Source of the DNA: Dictyostelium discoideum
Lineage: Eukaryota
Reading direction: 5' to 3'
Assembly: GCA_000004695.1 (NCBI GenBank)
Contig: CM000151.3
Span: 7,328,001-7,392,000, forward strand
Length of the DNA stretch: 64,000 nucleotides
Positions 4,929 to 17,014 of the stretch are shown piece after piece. Position 1 is the stretch's first letter. Every line of letters starts with the position of its first letter. The notes under the pieces are model-generated. The model saw only the letters and a list, made by a program, of their open reading frames with translations, did not search any database and was not told the DNA's origin. A program made the translations under genes and the position numbers.

Positions 4929-5071
4929 AAAAAAAAAATAAAAAAAAAACAGCTTGATTTTTTTTTTTAATTTGTCTATTCAAAATTTTTTTTCAATTAA
5001 CACATCGTGTCCTTTTGTGATTCATAATCATATCATCATTTTTTTTTTTTTATAAAAAAAATCTTTTAATA

Positions 5072-5127
<56 letters not shown>

Positions 5128-5387
5128 ATTTAAAATCATTTATTTAATTTTTTTTATTTTTTTTTATTTCTCATTTTAACCACACTTCACACTAAACCAC
5201 TAGTTTTGTATTTTTAAAATTATTTTTTACGTAAATAGAAATTTTATTATATTAATTCAATTACATATAAAGCAATTATAAATAATTTTTTTTAGGTTTC
5301 AATTTAATATATATTTATATATATATTAAAAATATATATATTTTTTTTTGCCAATCCTTTTTTTTTCTTATAAATTTTATATTTACA

Positions 5388-5430
<43 letters not shown>

Positions 5431-5510
5431 TCGATATTTTTTTTTTGATCAATTAAGCAATTCCATAACTTTTAAAATCAATTTTTTAAAAAAATAAAAA
5501 AAAAAAAAAA

Positions 5511-5547
<37 letters not shown>

Positions 5548-5558
5548 TCACAAATAGA

Positions 5559-8500
5559 ATGCAATACGTTAATGGTAATGATATTTCAAGTCAAAGTATT
5601 CATGAAGTTTTAGAACTTGCATTTTCAACAAAAATCCCATGGACAAAATTAGAATATGAATCAAGTGAAAAACATATAATACATTCCTATTCATCACATG
5701 AAAGAGGTATTTATTTAAGTAAAGGTGTTGCAGAATTTAATATTTCACCAGAAAATATGTATGAACTTTTATTGGATATTTCTTCAAGATCAAAAGTAAT
5801 TATTATTATTATTATTATTTAAATTTTTAATTAATTTTTTTTTTATTTTTTTTTTATTTATTTATTTATTTAAATAAATAAAAGAAAAAAAAAAAAATTA
5901 TTAATTACTAATTATTTTTTAAAATTTTAAAAAAAGTGGGATTTTCATTGTAGAGAAGCACATATTATTGAAGAATATGATCATTTAAATCATATTATTC
6001 ATTTAAATTTTACAAATCCATTAATTAGTAATTTGGATATGAATTTATATAGAAGTTGTAAGTATGATCCACAAGAGAGATTATTTGTAATTGCTATGAG
6101 ATCAATTGAATTGGAGGATGGTGATGTTGATCAATTTGAATGTTTACCAAATGGATGGGTAATTCAAGGTTTAAGAGGACAAAAAGATAAATGTAAGATG
6201 ACATTCGTTCAACAATGTGATCTAAGAGATATAGAACTTCAACGTATTCCAGGTTATAAATCATTCAATAGTAAAGAGAGACTTGAGGATTTTCAATTTC
6301 TTACATTGTTTCCTGCCACTGTAAGTGGTAGACTTGCAAAGATTTTCGAATCTATAGAACTATACATATCAAACAATGTGAAGGATATTGAAACCAAGGA
6401 TATTCGTATCTCAATTATGGAAAAAGCAGAAAAGGAGGTAAATGAAATGTTTGGTACAACCAATCCAGACTATGGTTGGAAAATTTATTTAAAGAAATTG
6501 GATATGGAAATTCTAATTAAAAAGACAACCTCTGGTTACTATATGATTGGTAAGGGTAGTTTTTCTTCGAGGTATTCACCAGAGTTATTGGCTGATGTAC
6601 TCTATCAGAAGAATCCTTTCGAATGGGATACTTTTTATGATAAAACTAAATTGGTTGAAAGTATCAATAGTTCAATCAGAGAGGTCGAGGTTCATTATAG
6701 AATGTGGAGAAATACAATCACCATGAGATTGCTACAATCCGTTAAAAAAGGACCTGGTAATTTCTCATCGGTACATTGGAGAAGTATTTGTTCTCCAAAT
6801 TATCAAGTGGCTGATGGTATCGAAGTACATTATCTTCCTACTGCACTCTTAAACTATGGTTTAGGTGATGGTAGTTTCACAAGTTTCTTGGCGGCAATCG
6901 AGGTTAAAGGTTATCCAACTCCTTGGGAGGAAGAGATGGTAACTAAAATGTTTGCTGCTAGAATCATTTCAAATCAAAATAGTATCATAAATCATGTAAA
7001 TAAATTAACAGGTGGTTCAGAGATGATAAGAGAATTACCTGTTATTCCTTCAGTTCAACATCATTGTGGTGATGTTGGTTCTCATATTGGTACTCCTCAA
7101 GTCTATAATGCAATGGTCGAAAATTTTGCTGATATACTTTTAGATGAAGGTAATAAAGATGGAAATGTAGTTTCTTCAAAAAATAAAAGAAAAAGAAATA
7201 AAAATAATGAAAATAAAAATAATAATAATGATAATATAATTGATGAAGAAATTGAACAAGAGGAGGAAAATATTGAAAAAGATCAACAACAAACCCAACA
7301 ACAACAAACTCAAAAACAACAACAACAACAACAACAACAACAAAAAACACAACAACAACCACAACAGCAACAACAACAACCACAAGAACAACAACAAAAT
7401 CACTCACAACTAAAAAAAGAAATCAAACCTACAAGACCAAGTATTCGTTTTACCTATTTATTAAGTAACAGTAGTAGTGGACAACGTCCAATTGCTTGGT
7501 ATGAATCAAAAAAACAACCATTCTTATTTTTGGTTAGTGATAGTAGTGAGAGAAAAGGAAAGATTCAAAGAAAGACTTATTATTTCTCAAATTCAGGTTT
7601 TGATAATTTACCAGAGGAAGTGGTTCAAATTATATTTTCCAATTTATCGGCAATCAATATTGTCAACTTATCATTAGTTTGTAAAAGATTTAAAATGGCA
7701 ACTGATAGTCCAATTCTTTGGAAAAATCTTTATAAAAGTAATCCATTATTTCATAAAAAGACACCAAAAAGAAAACAAATCATTCATTCAAATCTAAGTA
7801 ATGATGAAAATAAAGTAAATTCAAATTCTGGTGATTCTGCTGATGGTTCATCAAGCCAAGAAGAAGAAGAACAACAACAACAAAATCAACAACAAAATCA
7901 ACAACAAAATCAACAACAACAACAACAACAAACATTTGACCTTTCAAATATTAATTTAAATGATCCAATATCATTATTAATGGTATTTACAAATGGAATA
8001 ATTCCTCAAAATTTATCACCAACTGAAATAATAAATGTTGGTGGAATAGTGTCTCAAATTGATTTGAATGATCTTTCAAACGTTGAAACTCTTATTCAAC
8101 AATTACCTCATCAAGTTTTATCATTGATTCAAATGAATACACTTGATGCAAAGATTCAACATTTATCAATGATTAGTGGAATGCCAGCAACCATTGGTCA
8201 AGAATCACCAATCAATAAAAACTCTTCAGATAATCCAAAACCAAATGCATACAATAAAAGAGATAACAACTCTTATATTCCTGATGAAGAGTTTATTAAT
8301 TGGAAATCACATTACACTGAAAAACATAAGCAATCAAAGAGATGGGTTAATATGGAACCAATTCGTATCACCCCTCTAAAGGGTCACAATAGGGCAATCA
8401 AAGCTGTAAAGAGTGAGGGTAATTCAGCTATCACCGTATCAACAGAGAAAAAAATCAAATTTTGGAATTTAAACACTGGTCAATGTATTGGAGACTACGA

Positions 8501-9443
8501 AGGTGAATCAGGTGTTCTCTCTGTAGAGTATGATCACACTCAAAAGTCATCTTGTATTTGGCCATTGTCAGATTATACCAAAGTCCACATTGGCCATAAG
8601 AATGGTACCGTCACTATGGTTGATTTCATTGAACAACCAATTGAAGTTATTCATACATCAAGACCAACCAATTTGGCTGATGGTTTCGATTTCACCTTTC
8701 CTGGTAAATATTTGATTTGGGAACACACAATCATTCACTATTGGGATGTTGAAACAAGTACACTCTTGTGGAATGAACTAAATGCTCACACAAAGAAAAT
8801 CACTCAATCAAAGATTGTCGCACAACATGAACTTTCTAATAAAGGTATCGTATTCACAACTAGCTCTGATAAATCTGCAAAAGTTTGGGATTTAACAAAT
8901 GGTACTTGTATAAATACTTTGGTTGGCCATTCATATGCCGTCAATTGTATTGAACCAATTGGTGACTATATGGCTTTGACAGGTTCCACTGATAAAACTC
9001 TTAAACTTTGGGATCTTAGACAAGCCTCAACATTTATATCTAGTTACTCTACTAAACACACTGGTCCAATTAGATGTATTTCCTATCAAGAAAAGAATGG
9101 TATTGTTTTAAGTGGTAGTGATGATGGTTCAATCATTGCATTTAACTTGGATAATTGGAATCTTTCAAATATCTCTGTTGTTAAAAAACCAATCTTTAAT
9201 AATGTTATTGGTAATATTGGTACAACAACAACAACAACTACTACTACCACTACAACTACAACTACTACTACTTCAACTACAAATAATACTAATGTACCAG
9301 AGATTCCAAAGATTAATTTAGGTACTTTTAAGGATTCCAAAAGACTTCATAATCATGAATCTGCTGTAACTTGCATTGAATCTGATGAAGCTGGTTTTAT
9401 TAGTGGATCACAAAATGGATTGGTTTTGAGATGGGACTTTTAA
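5559..9443 (+). CDS. START (StAR-related lipid-transfer) domain + F-box + C-terminal WD40-repeat protein, ~1216 aa with polyQ/polyT inserts
   Basis: Exons 5559..5795 and 5937..9443. Donor AAA|gtaatt at 5796; the 141-nt AT intron ends ..aaaaag; exon 2 starts TGG GAT in the same frame, giving the junction ..SSRSK|WDFHCREAHIIEEYDHL. START-like N-terminal region (GVAEFNISPENMYELLLD.., ..RLFVIAMRSIELEDGD.., ..KMTFVQQCDLRDI..). F-box motif LPEEVVQIIFSNLSAINIVNLSLVCKRFKMATDSPILWKNLY. WD repeats include GHNRAIKAV..KIKFWNLNTG, GHSYAVNCIEP..TDKTLKLWDLR and LSGSDDGSIIAFNL. Confidence 0.75.
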
Positions 9444-9817: not shown

Positions 9818-10487
9818 CTAATTAATACCCCAAACCTCAACAACATAAGGTTTGAAATCATTTTCCTTTGAGAGTACTGTATTATTAAAAGTTTCGGAAG
9901 GACCTGAATAACCGTGAAGGAATTCATTATCCATCCATAATCCAAACATTGAACCACCACCAATTGAAATATAATCGTGACTTGCATAAATGAACATGTC
10001 ATTCTCTTTTGTCCATCGGAAGATATCGAAATCTGGATATATTTTGAATAAGAAAGTTTCACCACTACCAAAGAATACATCTTTTCTAGGTTCAACACGG
10101 TCAGATAAAAATGCACCAAAAATGTATCCATTCTCATCTTGAATCAAAAGAATGGATTGTTCAACTGTTTTGATTCTTTTATAAAAAGTGATGAAAGAAA
10201 CACCGTCGTTGGTGGTGTTGAAGAGTAATTCAATATCTGAGCCTTGAGTACGAATTGGAAGATAATGACGAAGTTTTTTATAGATTTCTGGTGTCATTAA
10301 TATTTTCTCTTGGAATTGATATTTAGTTTGATCTTGTAATAATTTTGGTGTTGTTGAGAAAGTCTCATCAAAAGAGGAGGCTAATGAATCACTAGATACA
10401 AGGGATCTAATATTATTATGACTACCATTTCTCCAATGATTAATTGAAATGGGTGCTGTTGGTTTTATACCTGTTGTAGTAACAGTG

Positions 10488-10519
<32 letters not shown>

Positions 10520-11324
10520 GGTAGTATTATTATTATTATTATTAATCGATAATGGTGCAATAACTGTTTGTTGACTATTGAAAGAACCTGTTAAATTTGG
10601 ACTTGAGGTTTGAGGTGAAAATTTACTATCAACAATCAATTGTTTTAAATAAGAGAAACAAGTATGAACACTTGTAGGATCACTACCTCTGAAGAATAAA
10701 GTTTGAATAGAGTTATCTTTATGAATGATTGCATAAATACAAGGAAAGATTAAAACCTTTTTATTTGCTCCAGTGATTTCATCTGTAACTGTCATTTCTT
10801 CTTCCTCTTCCATTAAATTTAATTTTGAAATTTCTTTTTGAATAAAAGCATCATGTTCCTCTTCTTCTTTTTTACTTTTAACCTTTGATTTTACTTTACT
10901 ATTATTATCATTGCCAATGCCACCAACTGAGCTACCATTTATACCTTTGTTAATTTTATCTTTAATATAACGTTGTTCTTTATACCAATCTTTTGAAAAA
11001 TGAGCTAACCATTCCGATTTATCGAATAAATATTTACAACTAATAATATGTGAATATTCAGCATGTAATTGAACAGATTTACCTATTAAACCTGGTTCCA
11101 TTATTGATTGAAAGATTAATTGATATGGTGTAAGTGTAAGATGACCAACCACTTTTTGATTTCTCATAAAACAAACTAATTTTTCTTTAACTATACTTTC
11201 TTTACTAATTCTTTCAAATCTACTTGTTGCTGAGAATGGTATATGAATTGGTGGTTTATTATTTGTAATTGGATTATTACTTATACTATTACCACTATTA
11301 TTATTACTATTATTATTATTATTG

Positions 11325-11355
<31 letters not shown>

Positions 11356-11369
11356 TACTATTATTATTA

Positions 11370-11404
<35 letters not shown>

Positions 11405-12631
11405 GTTGTTATTATTATTACCATCATCAAATGCCATTTTAATTTCTTCTTTTGATGGTTTAAATAAATCATTTACATTTAAGGATGAACCACCTGATAA
11501 AGCTCTTCCTCTATTATTACTATTATTAGTAGGTGATAAACATTCGATACCACCACTACCATTAATACTACTACTACTAACACTACTACTACTATTATTA
11601 ATATCTAATGAATCAATTGAATCAGCAGATGTTGTAATAAGGGATGGTGGTTGTTCAATAATTTGTTCCTCATTTAAATTTAGATTCTTTTTCTTATAAA
11701 CCCATAATTGTGTACCAGGTTTAAGTAATTTTTCAGAATGTAATAATCTATTAGCTTGAATTAAAACATCTCTTGGCATTGAGAATTGAAGTGAAATACC
11801 AGTAAGTGTATCTTTTTCTTTTACAGTATAAAGTTGATAAATATAATTATTATTTGAAATATTTGGGGGTTCTGCAAATTTACAACCTATTGAACCTGAT
11901 CTCGTTCTATTACCGCCACTTGGTGTAAATCCACCACTATTATTATTATTATTATTATTATAATTACTATTATTTCCATTTAATAAAATATCAATTGATG
12001 GTGAAACTAAATTTGTTGAAGCACTTTGAGATCTTAATCTCTCATTGTTGTTATTATTACTAGCACCAATCATTGGTGATAAAGATGGACTATTTATTGG
12101 AGGTACAGCAGATGATAATGAAATTGGTGATAATGGTGTACCACCACTAAGTGGATGAGTTGTAACAGGTGTACCACTAGTTCCTTCATGATAAGGTGAA
12201 TTTAAATTGATTTTCTTTGGTTGATTATTTACATTCTTTGGTATTCTCTTTTGAATGGTTGGTGAATCTAATAGATTGGTGATCTCTGGGAAATGAGATT
12301 TATTTGATTTATAAAATGATGAAATCAATGCCAACAAGTGATAAAGATACGGTTTTTTTTTATCCTTTAATTGACTTGCTAATTTATCCAATTTCTTCTT
12401 TAATTTAACTTTAAAATCTGTAATTGCCATTGTTGAATCACTAAAAACAATATCAAATGATGGTGCTGCTGATGGATATAAAAATGGGAATAAAATGATC
12501 ACTACAAATTTTCTATTATCAACATTTGCAATACAAACTCTATCTGCTAATGATAATTTTTCAAATGTAACATATTCAAATTTCTCTGTAATTATATTAC
12601 CAAGTTCTTGATGTAAATCTAATGGTTTATG

Positions 12632-12713
<82 letters not shown>

Positions 12714-14251
12714 GTTATAAATGGTGATTTTTTATTTAAATTTGAAATATCTTCTTCATCTGTACTTTCCTCTAATTCATTTGATAACATTTTATTCATT
12801 AAATCTTGTGATTCTTGAGAAATTCTAATATTAGTTGGTAATACTAATTTTGGAGGACCATCTTCCTTTGTAAAGATATCAATCATTTCATTTGTAATTC
12901 TCCACATATTGAATTGATTATCTTTACCAATTGATGTTACATAATGTTGTTTTTCACCACCTGCTACTTCAGTTGTTCTCCAATCAAAATTTAATATAGT
13001 ATCTTTATGTCCACCTGATAATGAAAGTATTGGATGCTCTGAACATTTTGCATTCCTAAATTGAATATCATTATATGATCCCTTTGATGAAATTGAACCA
13101 ATAATATCATTATTAACAAATGGCTAAAAAAAAAAAAATAATAAATAAATAAATATTAAATTAATACTTTTATTATTATTTCCAATTGATCAATGATATT
13201 TTTAAAAATAACAAGGTGTATATATAAATATACATACAAGGAATCTAGCGATATTACAAGTTGAATCTATATTATATCTATGTAATAAATTACTTGGAGG
13301 TGTTACATCCCAAACTTTTACACATTTTTCAGTTGGGCCACATGTTAATAGTTGATTTCTTTCCTTTGGACTCCATTCAATATTTGAAATTGAACCTATA
13401 TGTGCTGAAACACATGATAATGGTGATCCAAATTTCTATAAAAAAAAAAAAAAAAAATAAAAAAAAAAAAAAATGTTATTAATAAGTGTTGTTATAAAAA
13501 TATTAGAGTTTTTATTAATAATAATAATAATTACTCTTATATCCCAAATATTAAATTCACTAGCATTTGAAGTTGCTAGCATTGTACTTGAATTTGGATT
13601 CCAAGCGATTTGAGATAAATTTGATCTTGCTTTAAAGTTTGTACTAATTCCACCACTACCTTGAGTACGTTCTCTAATATCGAAAATATTTGCCATACAA
13701 TCAGAGCTTGCACTAGCGATTAAATTGGTCTCTTGTGTATTCCATGAGAGTGATGTAATATGTCTAATATGTGATTTAGAGAATTTAACAATCAATTTCT
13801 CATCTCTAACATTCCAAAGATAAATTGAATAATCCTTTAATGATGATGATACTAATAAATGTGATTCAGATTTATTTGTACTCCATTTTAATAAATCACA
13901 TTCAATCTCTTTAGAATTTGATTTTAATTTCTTAAAAATACATGGTGTTGTTGTTGGTGATGATGTTGTGGTTGTTGTCGATGATGATGATGATGAATGA
14001 TGTGATGATAAAAAACCTTTACTAATATTATTACTACTACTACTTGCTTCATCTATAATACTGATTTTATCATCTTGTGTATCCTTTGGTAAATTCAATA
14101 TGAATAAACTTCTCTCACTTGAGATTGCAACATGTTCACCTGTTAAATCAACTGCCAATGATGAGAATTTATATTTATTCTTTTTATCTAAACATGTTGA
14201 TACAATTGGTTGGAATGAATTTTGTTTAAACTGATTTGTACCATCCATCAT
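9818..14251 (-). CDS. WD40-repeat N-terminus fused to LysM + GRAM-like + C-terminal TLDc domain (OXR1/NCOA7-like oxidation-resistance family), ~1400 aa
   Basis: Exons (minus) are 14251..13535, 13435..13238 and 13123..9818. Exon 1 ends ..NIWDIR|gtaatt; its intron ends ..ttttatag. Exon 2 is KFGSPLSCVSAHIGSISNIEWSPKE..CVKVWDV..IARFL|gtatgt; the second intron ends ..tttttttttag. Exon 3 (PFVNNDIIGS..SLSGGHKDTILNFDW..) runs in frame into the 1029-aa ORF. LysM-like segment YTVKEKDTLTGISLQFSMPRDVLIQANRL..KPGTQLWVY. GRAM-like segment KLVCFMRNQKVVGHLTLTPYQLIFQS. TLDc region YLPIRTQGSDIELLFNTTNDGVSFITFYKRI..LLIQDENGYIFGAFLS..GSGETFLFKIYP..IYASHDYISIGGG..GLWMDNEFLHGYSGPSETFNN. Stop at 9820-9818. Confidence 0.7.
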
Positions 14252-15112: not shown

Positions 15113-17014
15113 TTAAGAATTTGAATGATTTTTACCTGATAAAACTCTGTCTAAATTAAAAGCAGCACTAATTAAACTTAAATGAGTGAAAGCTTGTGGA
15201 AAATTACCTAAAGCTTCACCACCAATACCAATTTCTTCAGAGAATAAACCCAAATGATTTGCATAACCTAACATTTCATCAAATATTAAACGAGCTTTAA
15301 CTAGATATTCTTTATTGACAACGGAAGCTCTTGTTAAACTTTCGATTAACCAAAATGTACAAATATTGAAAGTACCTTCTTCACCATCCAAACCATCGGT
15401 TGCAATATGATCATCATGACCATGGGTTAGATTATAACGAAATACCAAAGAGTTTGCAACTAGACCTCCTTCTTCCACTGGTTTGAGTATTGCTTCTAAT
15501 GTTGCTAAATTTCTTGGGTCTGATGGAGCCATAAAGAAAACCAACGACATTATCAATGTTGAAGCATCCAATGCTTTACTACCATAGAATTGAGTAATCT
15601 TTGTCCATTTATCACGTGGGGCTGGGAATGATCTACGATCTGCCAAACGCAATCCTCTATCCAATGCCACCCAACACATTATCTTGGAGTAGGTGAAATG
15701 TTGTTTACCACTTCTAACTTCCCAAATACCTTCATCCTTGGTTTGATAATTATCAGCCACCCAATCGACCATCTTCCTAATATGTAACCAAAAATCGTAG
15801 GAAACCAACGACCCATACTTATTGGAGAGATAAATCGAATCCATAAACTCGCCGAAAATGTCCATTTGAACTTGATTGATTGCATCATTACCAACTCTAA
15901 CCGGCTTGCTATCTCTATAGCCTGAAAGATGGTCCAATGTGTATTCGGGGATTTTATCATCGCCATGAATGCTATACATGACACGCACGGGCATGCTTCT
16001 TTTTGGGTCGTCATAAACTGCTTCGGCACATCTTGTTTCCAACCATTTCATAAATGCATGTGCTTCTTCAATGAAGCCAATTCTAATCAAACCATAGACA
16101 GAGAAACTTGAATCTCTCAACCAAGCGTATCTGTAATCCCAATTTCTAGGCCCACCCAATCCCTCTGGTAGCGAACAAGTTGGCGAGGCAATGATTGCAC
16201 CCGTTGGAGCGAATGTCATAAGCTTCAAACATAGTGCACTACGTTCCACGATTTCCCTCCATCTTCCCTTGTAAGTGCATTTCTCCAACCATTTTTGCCA
16301 GTAGAATATGGTGCCCATGAATAATTCATTCTCCAATTTGCCAATATCCTCTGGAACACGATAGAGATGCTTTGGAAACAAGTCTACACTATCAAACGAT
16401 TCCTTTAGTATGAACACCACCACATCATTCTCTTTGACAGTGAAGACCGATTCTAGGAACCCCCCATTTCCATCATTGATAAGTGTCATTGGAATCTTTG
16501 ATATTAAATCTAAATTGATCTTTGTAGGCTCAGATTGAATATTGTAACCAAATTCTGTTTTCTCCATTTTATGTTTATCTAATGCGAAATTGAATGTTGG
16601 TTTGAATATCATTTTCATATCTAATTTGCCTCTGATTCCTTTAACTTTTCTAACTAACCATTTCGAGCCTTTTCCATCTACAACTGGCATATAATCAATC
16701 ACTGATGCTACCGATTCAACTAAATGAAATCTACTCTGAAGTACATTTGTATCTGGCCAATAGCTTTGCTTGGTTTTGGTTTGTTTACACTTCGATCTCA
16801 ATGTTTCTGGTGCAATACGCCAATGTCCACCCTTTTCACAATCTAACAATGAGCAAAACATAGCTGGTGAATCAAAATGCGGCCAACACATAAAATTAAT
16901 ATCAGCATGAATTGATATCAATGCACTTGTTAACATATTTCCAATAACTCCATGATTTTCAATTAATGGATAAGATTCACAAACTCCATCAATTTCAATT
17001 TCATTACTTGCCAT
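15113..17014 (-). CDS. glycoside hydrolase family 15 (glucoamylase/trehalase-like, bacterial/archaeal type) protein, 633 aa, intronless
   Basis: Single ORF from ATG at 17014 to TAA at 15113. GH15 signatures: N-terminal beta-sandwich region (ENHGVIGNMLTSALISIHADINFMCWPHFDSPAMFCSLLD..GGHWRIAP) and catalytic (alpha/alpha)6 motifs (YRYAWLRDSSFSVYGL, NQVQMDIFGEF, EGIWEVRSGKQHFTYSKIMCWVALDRG, CTFWLIESL). GC content and third-position GC are clearly above neighbouring genes, and the ORF has no polyN/polyQ tracts or introns. Confidence 0.8.
   Translation of the reverse strand: MASNEIEIDGVCESYPLIENHGVIGNMLTSALISIHADINFMCWPHFDSPAMFCSLLDCEKGGHWRIAPETLRSKCKQTKTKQSYWPDTNVLQSRFHLVESVASVIDYMPVVDGKGSKWLVRKVKGIRGKLDMKMIFKPTFNFALDKHKMEKTEFGYNIQSEPTKINLDLISKIPMTLINDGNGGFLESVFTVKENDVVVFILKESFDSVDLFPKHLYRVPEDIGKLENELFMGTIFYWQKWLEKCTYKGRWREIVERSALCLKLMTFAPTGAIIASPTCSLPEGLGGPRNWDYRYAWLRDSSFSVYGLIRIGFIEEAHAFMKWLETRCAEAVYDDPKRSMPVRVMYSIHGDDKIPEYTLDHLSGYRDSKPVRVGNDAINQVQMDIFGEFMDSIYLSNKYGSLVSYDFWLHIRKMVDWVADNYQTKDEGIWEVRSGKQHFTYSKIMCWVALDRGLRLADRRSFPAPRDKWTKITQFYGSKALDASTLIMSLVFFMAPSDPRNLATLEAILKPVEEGGLVANSLVFRYNLTHGHDDHIATDGLDGEEGTFNICTFWLIESLTRASVVNKEYLVKARLIFDEMLGYANHLGLFSEEIGIGGEALGNFPQAFTHLSLISAAFNLDRVLSGKNHSNS

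Follow-up and report, generated by a model that had tools for sequence, protein, structure and literature searches.

Dictyostelium discoideum fbxA (chtA) encodes an F-box/WD40 protein with a predicted N-terminal pair of START domains

Almost certainly, the two-exon gene at 5559..9443 on the forward strand of the analysed window, a 64,000-nucleotide stretch of Dictyostelium discoideum DNA, is fbxA (also chtA, cheater A, or FbxwA) and encodes an FBXW-type adaptor of SCF ubiquitin ligases. With high confidence, the best explanation of the whole locus is that its 1247-residue product is an SCF substrate receptor carrying an N-terminal tandem of START domains. As fbxA/chtA is a textbook Dictyostelium gene in social evolution and cell fate, already known and well studied, the locus is a rediscovery; an earlier note on this DNA had implied that the union of START with F-box/WD40 was new, a novelty that falls away with exact matches to published fbxA primers. 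The START, F-box and WD40 domains pass Pfam thresholds, so routine Pfam annotation should find them. The useful remainder is that the N-terminal third of FbxA is predicted to be a conserved START pair, on the function of which our literature search found no paper. The literature that we found treats FbxA as an F-box/WD40 protein only, with no tandem START reading of its N terminus. FbxA/ChtA was, however, reportedly listed among START proteins by Schrick et al. in 2004.

Gene structure and identity

The gene comprises exon 1 (5559..5795, forward strand, residues 1–79, with its ATG at 5559), supported by the translation of the open reading frame and by orthologue N termini, and exon 2 (5937..9443, forward strand, residues 80–1247 plus the TAA stop codon at 9441-9443). 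Between them lies a 141-nt GT..AG intron (5796..5936, forward strand) with a G+C content of 2.8%, compared with 31% in the coding sequence. The exon-1 frame runs into a stop at 5820 and the exon-2 frame opens only after the TAA at 5928, which leaves AG at 5935-5936 as the forced acceptor. Thirteen GT/AG combinations are in frame and free of stops, and of their junctions only 5795|5937 aligns without a gap to orthologues (..SSRSK|WDFHC.. versus ..KLRHK|WDYHC.. in D. purpureum); the 12 alternative pairs were rejected, as each removes residues that are conserved in orthologues. The stretch delimited in the earlier note is exactly the coding region from ATG to TAA, and the intron proposed there is borne out by composition, reading frames, orthologue colinearity and the conserved N terminus.

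It is very improbable that this gene model is wrong, such that exon 1 comes from another transcript and the protein starts inside the large open reading frame with a truncated first START domain. That frame alone is open from 5931 and contains internal ATG codons, as such a start would need, but the spliced product is gapless over the junction with respect to D. purpureum and other orthologues, the N-terminal sequence MQYVNG is common to orthologues and distant relatives even at 20% identity, and, without exon 1, the first START domain of the AlphaFold2 (AF2) model would lack helix 1 and strands 1–3.

The identity of the gene follows from primers published for tagging D. discoideum FbxwA (= FbxA/ChtA), three of which match the window exactly: at 8399-8427 (forward strand), at 9416-9440 (antisense, reverse strand, ending on the last sense codon before TAA) and at 9826-9850 (forward strand). 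The span 8399..9440 is 1,042 nt long, which is the insert length quoted in the primer paper, where FbxwA is taken to be the F-box protein with WD40 repeats that Mohanty et al. described in 2001. For a fourth primer, FbxA3'-AS, the 3' 25 nt match at 10789-10813; its full 30-nt gene-specific part has no match in the window, the published primer having one extra A relative to the window. Exact look-up of the 1247-residue product in the protein collection did not find it, so that the gene is identified by its primer matches and orthologues and not by comparison with a database record. Among the orthologues, that of Cavenderia fasciculata bears the name 'F-Box A protein' and has 62% identity over residues 1–260, and that of D. 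purpureum has 73% identity over residues 1–483. At the gene level, the locus and FbxA/ChtA/FbxwA do not differ.

Two START domains at the N terminus

On the basis of structural models and sequence profiles, the N-terminal 437 residues are two tandem START domains. The earlier note had read the first ~330 residues as a START domain; the fold holds, whereas the single domain does not, as hhalign, family profiles, AF2 models and Foldseek together indicate a pair extending over ~437 residues. START1 (5559..6392, forward strand, residues 1–231) spans the intron and is delineated by Pfam, the AF2 model and Foldseek. START2 (6402..7010, forward strand, residues 235–437) is diverged and was recognized by hhalign, the family profile, AF2 and Foldseek.

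Pfam matches were judged against the curated (gathering) cut-offs of that database, and the three domains named in the earlier note—START, F-box and WD40—all lie above them on the 1247-residue product. In START1, Pfam START (PF01852) matches residues 15–177 with E = 5e-8 and 33 bits (cut-off of 22). START2 of FbxA on its own has no match in Pfam, and START2 of the relative P0009 matches Pfam START directly (E = 6e-11, 42.5 bits). Profile–profile comparison of START1 with START2 using hhalign gave a probability of 98.35% (E = 1.1e-14), and the START2 family profile matched solved START domains, with StarD13 at E = 1.1e-14 and also STARD6 and STARD10. A single-sequence search of residues 1–484 against PDB sequences returned only a marginal match to ACOT11 (E = 0.83); together with the missing Pfam match, this made profiles and structure prediction necessary for START2.

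The AF2 model of residues 1–484 has a pLDDT of 77.9, rising to 90.1 for START2 modelled alone, and the relative orientation of START1 and START2 is uncertain in it (pTM 0.57). The order of secondary-structure elements fits the helix-grip fold—an N-terminal helix, a nine-stranded curved sheet and a long C-terminal helix—in both domains, running in START1 from H6-22 through H208-225, in line with the AlphaFold outcome anticipated for a START region. Foldseek retrieved START domains at a probability of 1.0 and a TM score of about 0.6–0.75, including StarD13, STARD4/5, StAR, CERT and ACOT11, and the top matches of the START2 model were all START domains. Across the family, only a few N-terminal positions are invariant (G6, W28, E91, D94, R118, S135, W260 and P380).

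F-box, linker and propeller

The C-terminal part bears out the earlier description of a clear F-box followed by a WD40 propeller. The F-box (7599..7736, forward strand, residues 634–679) is matched by Pfam F-box-like (PF12937; E = 6e-13, 48.8 bits, cut-off 24.3) and by F-box (PF00646; E = 2.6e-11), and the F-box-like match contains the string LPEEVVQIIFSNL..LVCKRFK..ILWKNLY to which that description had appealed. An FBXW7-type linker helix, NWKSHYTEKHKQSKRW (8298..8348, forward strand, residues 867–883), aligns to 'PWKSAYIRQHRIDTNW' of FBXW7 and runs into blade 1 of the propeller (8385..9437, forward strand, residues 896–1246), which is defined by Pfam and by the match to FBXW7. WD40 (PF00400) matches with E = 8.9e-21 and 73.9 bits (cut-off 27), many other propeller families match too, and about seven WD-like repeats can be counted by eye. 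Among solved structures, FBXW7 is nearest (E = 3.5e-40), with FBXW11/FBXW1A and Cdc4 next.

Human FBXW7, yeast Cdc4, β-TrCP/FBXW1A and FBXW11 act as substrate receptors of SCF ligases, the substrates being typically phosphorylated, and share with FbxA the order of F-box, helical linker (WKxxY...W) and WD40, but they are without START domains. FbxA further differs from these proteins by an extra low-complexity insertion of ~180 residues between F-box and linker, within which lies an E/Q/N-rich tract (7860..7931, forward strand, residues 721–744), and by a poly-threonine insertion in the propeller between the last two WD repeats (9219..9281, forward strand, residues 1174–1194). In the alignment with FBXW7, the WD repeats of FbxA fit in several registers, which makes the counterparts of the phosphodegron-binding arginines ambiguous. 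The reading of this architecture as that of an SCF substrate adaptor is sustained by the F-box, linker and propeller, with FBXW7 nearest, and Skp1 binding, proposed as a check, is answered in the literature, where FbxwA is listed as an interactor of Skp1 and is reported from Skp1 pull-downs (PMC9485057). An interaction of FbxA with cullin has also been reported, with the caveat, made in review, that the antibody used in the cullin pull-down was not specific for CulA (PMC9108976).

Distribution of the architecture

An exhaustive search of 1.84 billion representative proteins found only 30 that match the N-terminal region. The order START(-START), F-box, WD40 is kept in 15 relatives, and the named full-architecture members are all Amoebozoa, drawn from Dictyostelia and Archamoebae (Mastigamoeba and Pelomyxa); the earlier judgement that this combination is rare is a fair one. 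A word-indexed homologue search, with either a single sequence or a ten-sequence profile, returned a truncated Cavenderia protein only, and because it came back nearly empty the exhaustive search was needed to find the FbxA family.

The coupling of START to a signalling or catalytic output in one polypeptide has parallels in StarD13/DLC2 (RhoGAP-START), ACOT11 (thioesterase-START) and CERT (PH-START), and in the plant HD-ZIP III/IV homeodomain-START factors; it is StarD13, STARD5, ACOT11, StAR and CERT that the FbxA START domains match best in structure and sequence. FbxA differs from these multidomain proteins in that its output is a ubiquitin-ligase adaptor and its START domain is duplicated in tandem at the N terminus, and its START domains have only 10–17% sequence identity to these proteins. 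Two tandem helix-grip domains also occur in the bacterial di-domain ARO/CYC polyketide cyclases BexL and StfQ, and BexL (4xrw) is the top Foldseek match for the two-domain model (E = 1.7e-11 over 395 aligned columns). The likeness is one of fold only: at 7–8% identity and a pair rmsd of ~14 Å, the arrangement of the domains in FbxA differs from that in BexL and StfQ, and no catalytic role for the START pair is suggested by it.

Proposed function of the START pair

In the mechanism that we propose, the F-box found here (residues 634–679) would dock FbxA on Skp1–cullin, as binding reported in the literature suggests, and the WD40 propeller, by way of the FBXW7-like linker helix, would present the substrate, as in other members of its family. 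The cAMP phosphodiesterase RegA persists in fbxA- cells, and fbxA is required for its loss (PMC9108976); according to the literature, the removal of RegA after aggregation depends on FbxA and CulA and appears to be ERK-dependent. Such removal raises cAMP levels and PKA activity and permits prestalk and culmination fates. Strains that have lost fbxA are obligate social cheaters (PMC10984163). Within this scheme, the START pair may act as a regulatory module, tuning where or when the ligase is active through the binding of a small hydrophobic molecule or a membrane lipid. We consider this, which is close to the lipid-regulated targeting suggested in the earlier note, the most likely role of the pair, tentatively and from the fold only. 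If the pair does bind a lipid or morphogen, a diffusible or metabolic signal would be tied directly to RegA/PKA control, and the same signal to the cheater phenotype.

START2 is too diverged for Pfam and could thus be a structural or protein-binding remnant. It is possible, if doubtful, that the pair as a whole works in protein interaction or as a scaffold—recruiting a substrate or co-factor, dimerizing or autoinhibiting the propeller, for example—having kept the helix-grip fold but lost lipid binding. Other FBXW proteins dimerize through regions N-terminal to the F-box, and the divergence of START2, the scarcity of invariant positions and a literature search for FbxA with START or lipid that found no paper linking them all point in this direction. 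Against it, both domains model confidently as a complete helix-grip with a long C-terminal lid helix, the closest matches of both are ligand-binding STARD proteins, and the two-domain arrangement has been retained across deep Amoebozoan lineages. That the START domains might instead recognize lipid and so place the ligase on a membrane or at an organelle, setting its location and not acting as an allosteric on/off switch, seems unlikely: the best sequence match of START2, StarD13/DLC2, bears the PDB title 'lipid transfer and protein localization domain', as such a role would suggest, but the conserved basic KRKR cluster after START2 hints at nuclear and not membrane localization.

In a narrower version of ligand-tuned regulation, which we regard as a long shot, the tandem START domains would serve as receptor for a small hydrophobic signal acting in development, and SCF-FbxA would be a ubiquitin ligase gated by this ligand. 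Plants offer analogues in the F-box hormone receptors TIR1 and COI1 and in PYR/PYL, the abscisic acid (ABA) receptors of the START superfamily. Of the candidate ligands, the chlorinated polyketide DIF-1 is the most provocative; Nelson et al. reportedly described in 2000 that the pstO zone of fbxA- slugs is reduced and resembles that of DIF-deficient mutants. A sterol or other lipid would be more likely than DIF-1 specifically. The START/F-box/WD40 architecture also occurs in Archamoebae, a group that is not known to develop as dictyostelids do and that presumably lacks DIF-1. As of 2015, the intermediates of DIF-1 signalling, transcription factors aside, had not been identifiable 'by orthodox methods', and the authors still hoped to identify the DIF-1 receptor or receptors (PMC4325849).

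Sequence between START2 and the F-box

The basic cluster that follows START2, KNKRKRN (7179..7199, forward strand, residues 494–500), resembles a nuclear localization signal and may act as one; a run of four K/R residues is present in 11 of the 16 family members, mostly between START2 and the F-box. Downstream lies a glutamine-rich low-complexity tract (7281..7397, forward strand, residues 528–566). About 30 residues upstream of the F-box is a conserved motif, KKQPFLFLVSD (7509..7541, forward strand, residues 604–614), the pattern of which, PFxFLV[SP], recurs in 7 of the 16 members and, where LPxE is found, always lies 25–33 residues ahead of it.

Identity and gene model of the locus

An indexed homologue search returned a sole match, 'F-Box A protein [Cavenderia fasciculata]' at 62% identity, and Dictyostelium discoideum fbxA was therefore taken as the candidate for the two-exon gene at 5559..9443 (+). 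The locus is fbxA (also chtA, FbxwA), because published FbxA primers match the window with the stated insert size. PMC10539598 identifies FbxwA with the WD40-type F-box protein in Mohanty et al. 2001; in that work the West laboratory tagged its C terminus, with primers named FbxA5'-S, FbxA5'-AS, FbxA3'-S and FbxA3'-AS. Gene-specific parts of published primers match exactly at 8399-8427 (+), 9416-9440 (-; its end falls on the final codon ahead of the stop) and 9826-9850 (+), and 8399..9440 spans 1,042 nt, equal to the insert size given in that paper. The 3' 25 nt of the fourth primer, FbxA3'-AS, match 10789-10813, and a search of the window for its full 30 nt gave no match. Compared with 10789-10817 (-), the primer in Table S1 of PMC10539598 has one extra A (TTTAAATGG versus TTTAATGG), a discrepancy that may reflect a misprint, deliberate design or a difference between strains. 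The exact 1247-residue protein was not found when looked up in the protein collection, and the word-indexed search overlooked a D. purpureum orthologue (73% identical) present in the same collection; negatives from that search do not amount to absence.

On the forward strand, an 87-residue open reading frame starts at ATG 5559 and one of 1136 residues finishes at 9443; joining 5559..5795 to 5937..9443 gives a 3744-nt coding sequence for 1247 residues, with a GT..AG intron of 141 nt and 2.8% G+C. The junction is under tight constraint: the exon-1 frame meets a stop at 5820, the exon-2 frame is open only downstream of a TAA at 5928 and, of the 13 GT/AG pairs free of stops, gapless alignment to orthologues is obtained with 5795|5937 alone. 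The N terminus, MQYVNG, is kept even in relatives with 20% identity. The coordinates and gene model proposed in the earlier note are thus correct. Composition fits a Dictyostelium genome: at 21.8% G+C the window is extremely AT-rich, and it contains long homopolymers as well as coding runs of poly-Q/N/T. Upstream of fbxA (5040-5545) lie runs of T exceeding 60 nt and of A some 40-55 nt long, as is typical of Dictyostelium intergenic DNA.

A tandem START pair precedes the F-box and propeller

A Pfam scan of the full product bore out all three domain types that had been read from the sequence, with START (PF01852) at residues 15-177 (E = 5e-8; 33 bits against a cut-off of 22), an F-box-like domain at 634-679 (E = 6e-13) and WD40 (E = 9e-21) with many propeller families at about 896-1246. 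START domains are about 210 residues long, so the N-terminal stretch of about 330 residues assigned to START in the earlier note matches neither one domain nor two. Its START fold stands; its single domain and length give way, on six lines of evidence, to a tandem pair (START1, residues 1-231; START2, 235-437).

In phmmer searches, residues 1-235 matched a second region (about 270-416) in two relatives, P0007 (1e-7) and P0009 (6e-5), and residues 241-484 matched the first domain of other relatives. Aligning the two halves of the family alignment with hhalign gave 98.35% probability (E = 1.1e-14, 180 columns). Pfam had no match to residues 241-484 of FbxA itself, and the equivalent region of P0009 matched START (E = 6e-11). 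A domain-2 profile built from 10 sequences recovered the solved START domains of StarD13 (1.1e-14), STARD6 (1.7e-10) and STARD10 (1.3e-6). The structure-prediction check suggested earlier found the helix-grip fold in two modules: AlphaFold2 modelled residues 1-484 (pLDDT 77.9) as two complete helix-grip modules, for which Foldseek returned START domains at probability 1.0 and, as best match, a di-domain helix-grip protein; domain 2 alone (pLDDT 90.1, pTM 0.85) had only START domains as top matches (TM 0.6-0.7). A tandem START pair is thereby supported. The predicted geometry between START1 and START2 is uncertain, the two-domain model having a pTM of 0.57.

Among solved structures, FBXW7 is nearest to the C-terminal half (E = 3.5e-40), with FBXW11, beta-TrCP and Cdc4 next, and the alignment takes in the FBXW7 linker ahead of blade 1 (NWKSHYTEKHKQSKRW versus PWKSAYIRQHRIDTNW). 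The propeller has about seven WD-like repeats, counted by eye, with a poly-Thr insertion ahead of the last. Between START2 and the F-box, a KRKR-type basic cluster (7179-7199, residues 494-500) and a PFLFLVS motif (7509-7541, residues 604-614, some 30 residues ahead of the F-box) suggest, from sequence conservation, further functional elements within the linker. The cluster recurs in 11 of 16 family members, mostly after START2, and PFxFLV[SP] in 7 of 16, 25-33 residues upstream of the F-box LPxE; both are kept well outside the FbxA clade (relatives P0002, P0003, P0006, P0009, P0017 and P0021).

The layout is old within Amoebozoa

Among 1.84 billion representative proteins, just 30 matched the N-terminal region (E <= 1e-3), and half of them (15/30; 900-1200 residues) share the START(-START), F-box, WD40 order of FbxA. 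Named full-order relatives fall into an FbxA clade (represented by D. purpureum, the Cavenderia protein being a fragment), a second clade of dictyostelid paralogues with about 20% identity to FbxA (Heterostelium, Tieghemostelium, Synstelium, Acytostelium and D. cf. discoideum) and Archamoebae (Mastigamoeba balamuthi and Pelomyxa schiedti). Because it occurs in all three groups, the START-START-F-box-WD40 layout is old within Amoebozoa; it is rare elsewhere and older than dictyostelid multicellularity.

Members of the second clade (P0020 from Dictyostelium cf. discoideum, 1150 residues; P0008, P0010, P0007, P0011 and P0022) are labelled just 'WD40 repeat-containing' or hypothetical in public records, and the literature surveyed held no functional description of this clade. 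The Cavenderia fasciculata 'F-Box A protein' (P0001, 318 residues) ends after START1 in an unrelated proline/threonine-rich tail and probably reflects truncation or mis-splicing of the gene model, not a short protein.

FbxA as a candidate ligand-responsive adaptor

This gene was known before and has been studied intensively. Skp1 interactors include FbxwA (PMC9485057), so the Skp1-binding test suggested in the earlier note had already been done; that note's observation is confirmed overall and its interpretation supported in part. FbxA was also recovered in a pull-down with a cullin taken to be CulA; the antibody, according to the review, was not CulA-specific (PMC9108976). RegA, the cAMP phosphodiesterase, remains high post-aggregation in culA- and fbxA- cells, and in the published model its ERK-dependent degradation by SCF-FbxA activates PKA (PMC9108976; PMC5666861). 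The fbxA- (chtA-) mutant is a classic obligate social cheater (PMC10984163).

Taken with the domain results, these reports show FbxA to be an FBXW-type adaptor, joined to Skp1-cullin by its F-box and required for RegA turnover. We propose that, with the F-box providing this coupling, the propeller would bind the (phospho-)substrate and the START pair may be a module through which a hydrophobic ligand or a membrane lipid exerts regulation. Alternatively, the pair could be a protein-interaction scaffold without ligand, or a localisation device. A speculative reading, of high value if true, is that the START module turns FbxA into a ligand-gated SCF receptor, whose signal might be a lipid or polyketide of Dictyostelium.

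Neighbouring genes

Downstream, a convergent gene at 9818-12907 (-) encodes a 1029-residue LysM and TLDc protein with long poly-N tracts (Pfam TLD, E = 7e-50; LysM, E = 9e-7), its stop just ~375 bp from that of fbxA. A WD40-repeat open reading frame at 13436-14251 (-) is probably a single exon from a larger gene, and 15113-17014 (-) encodes a glycoside hydrolase family 15/trehalase-like protein (GH15, E = 1e-62).
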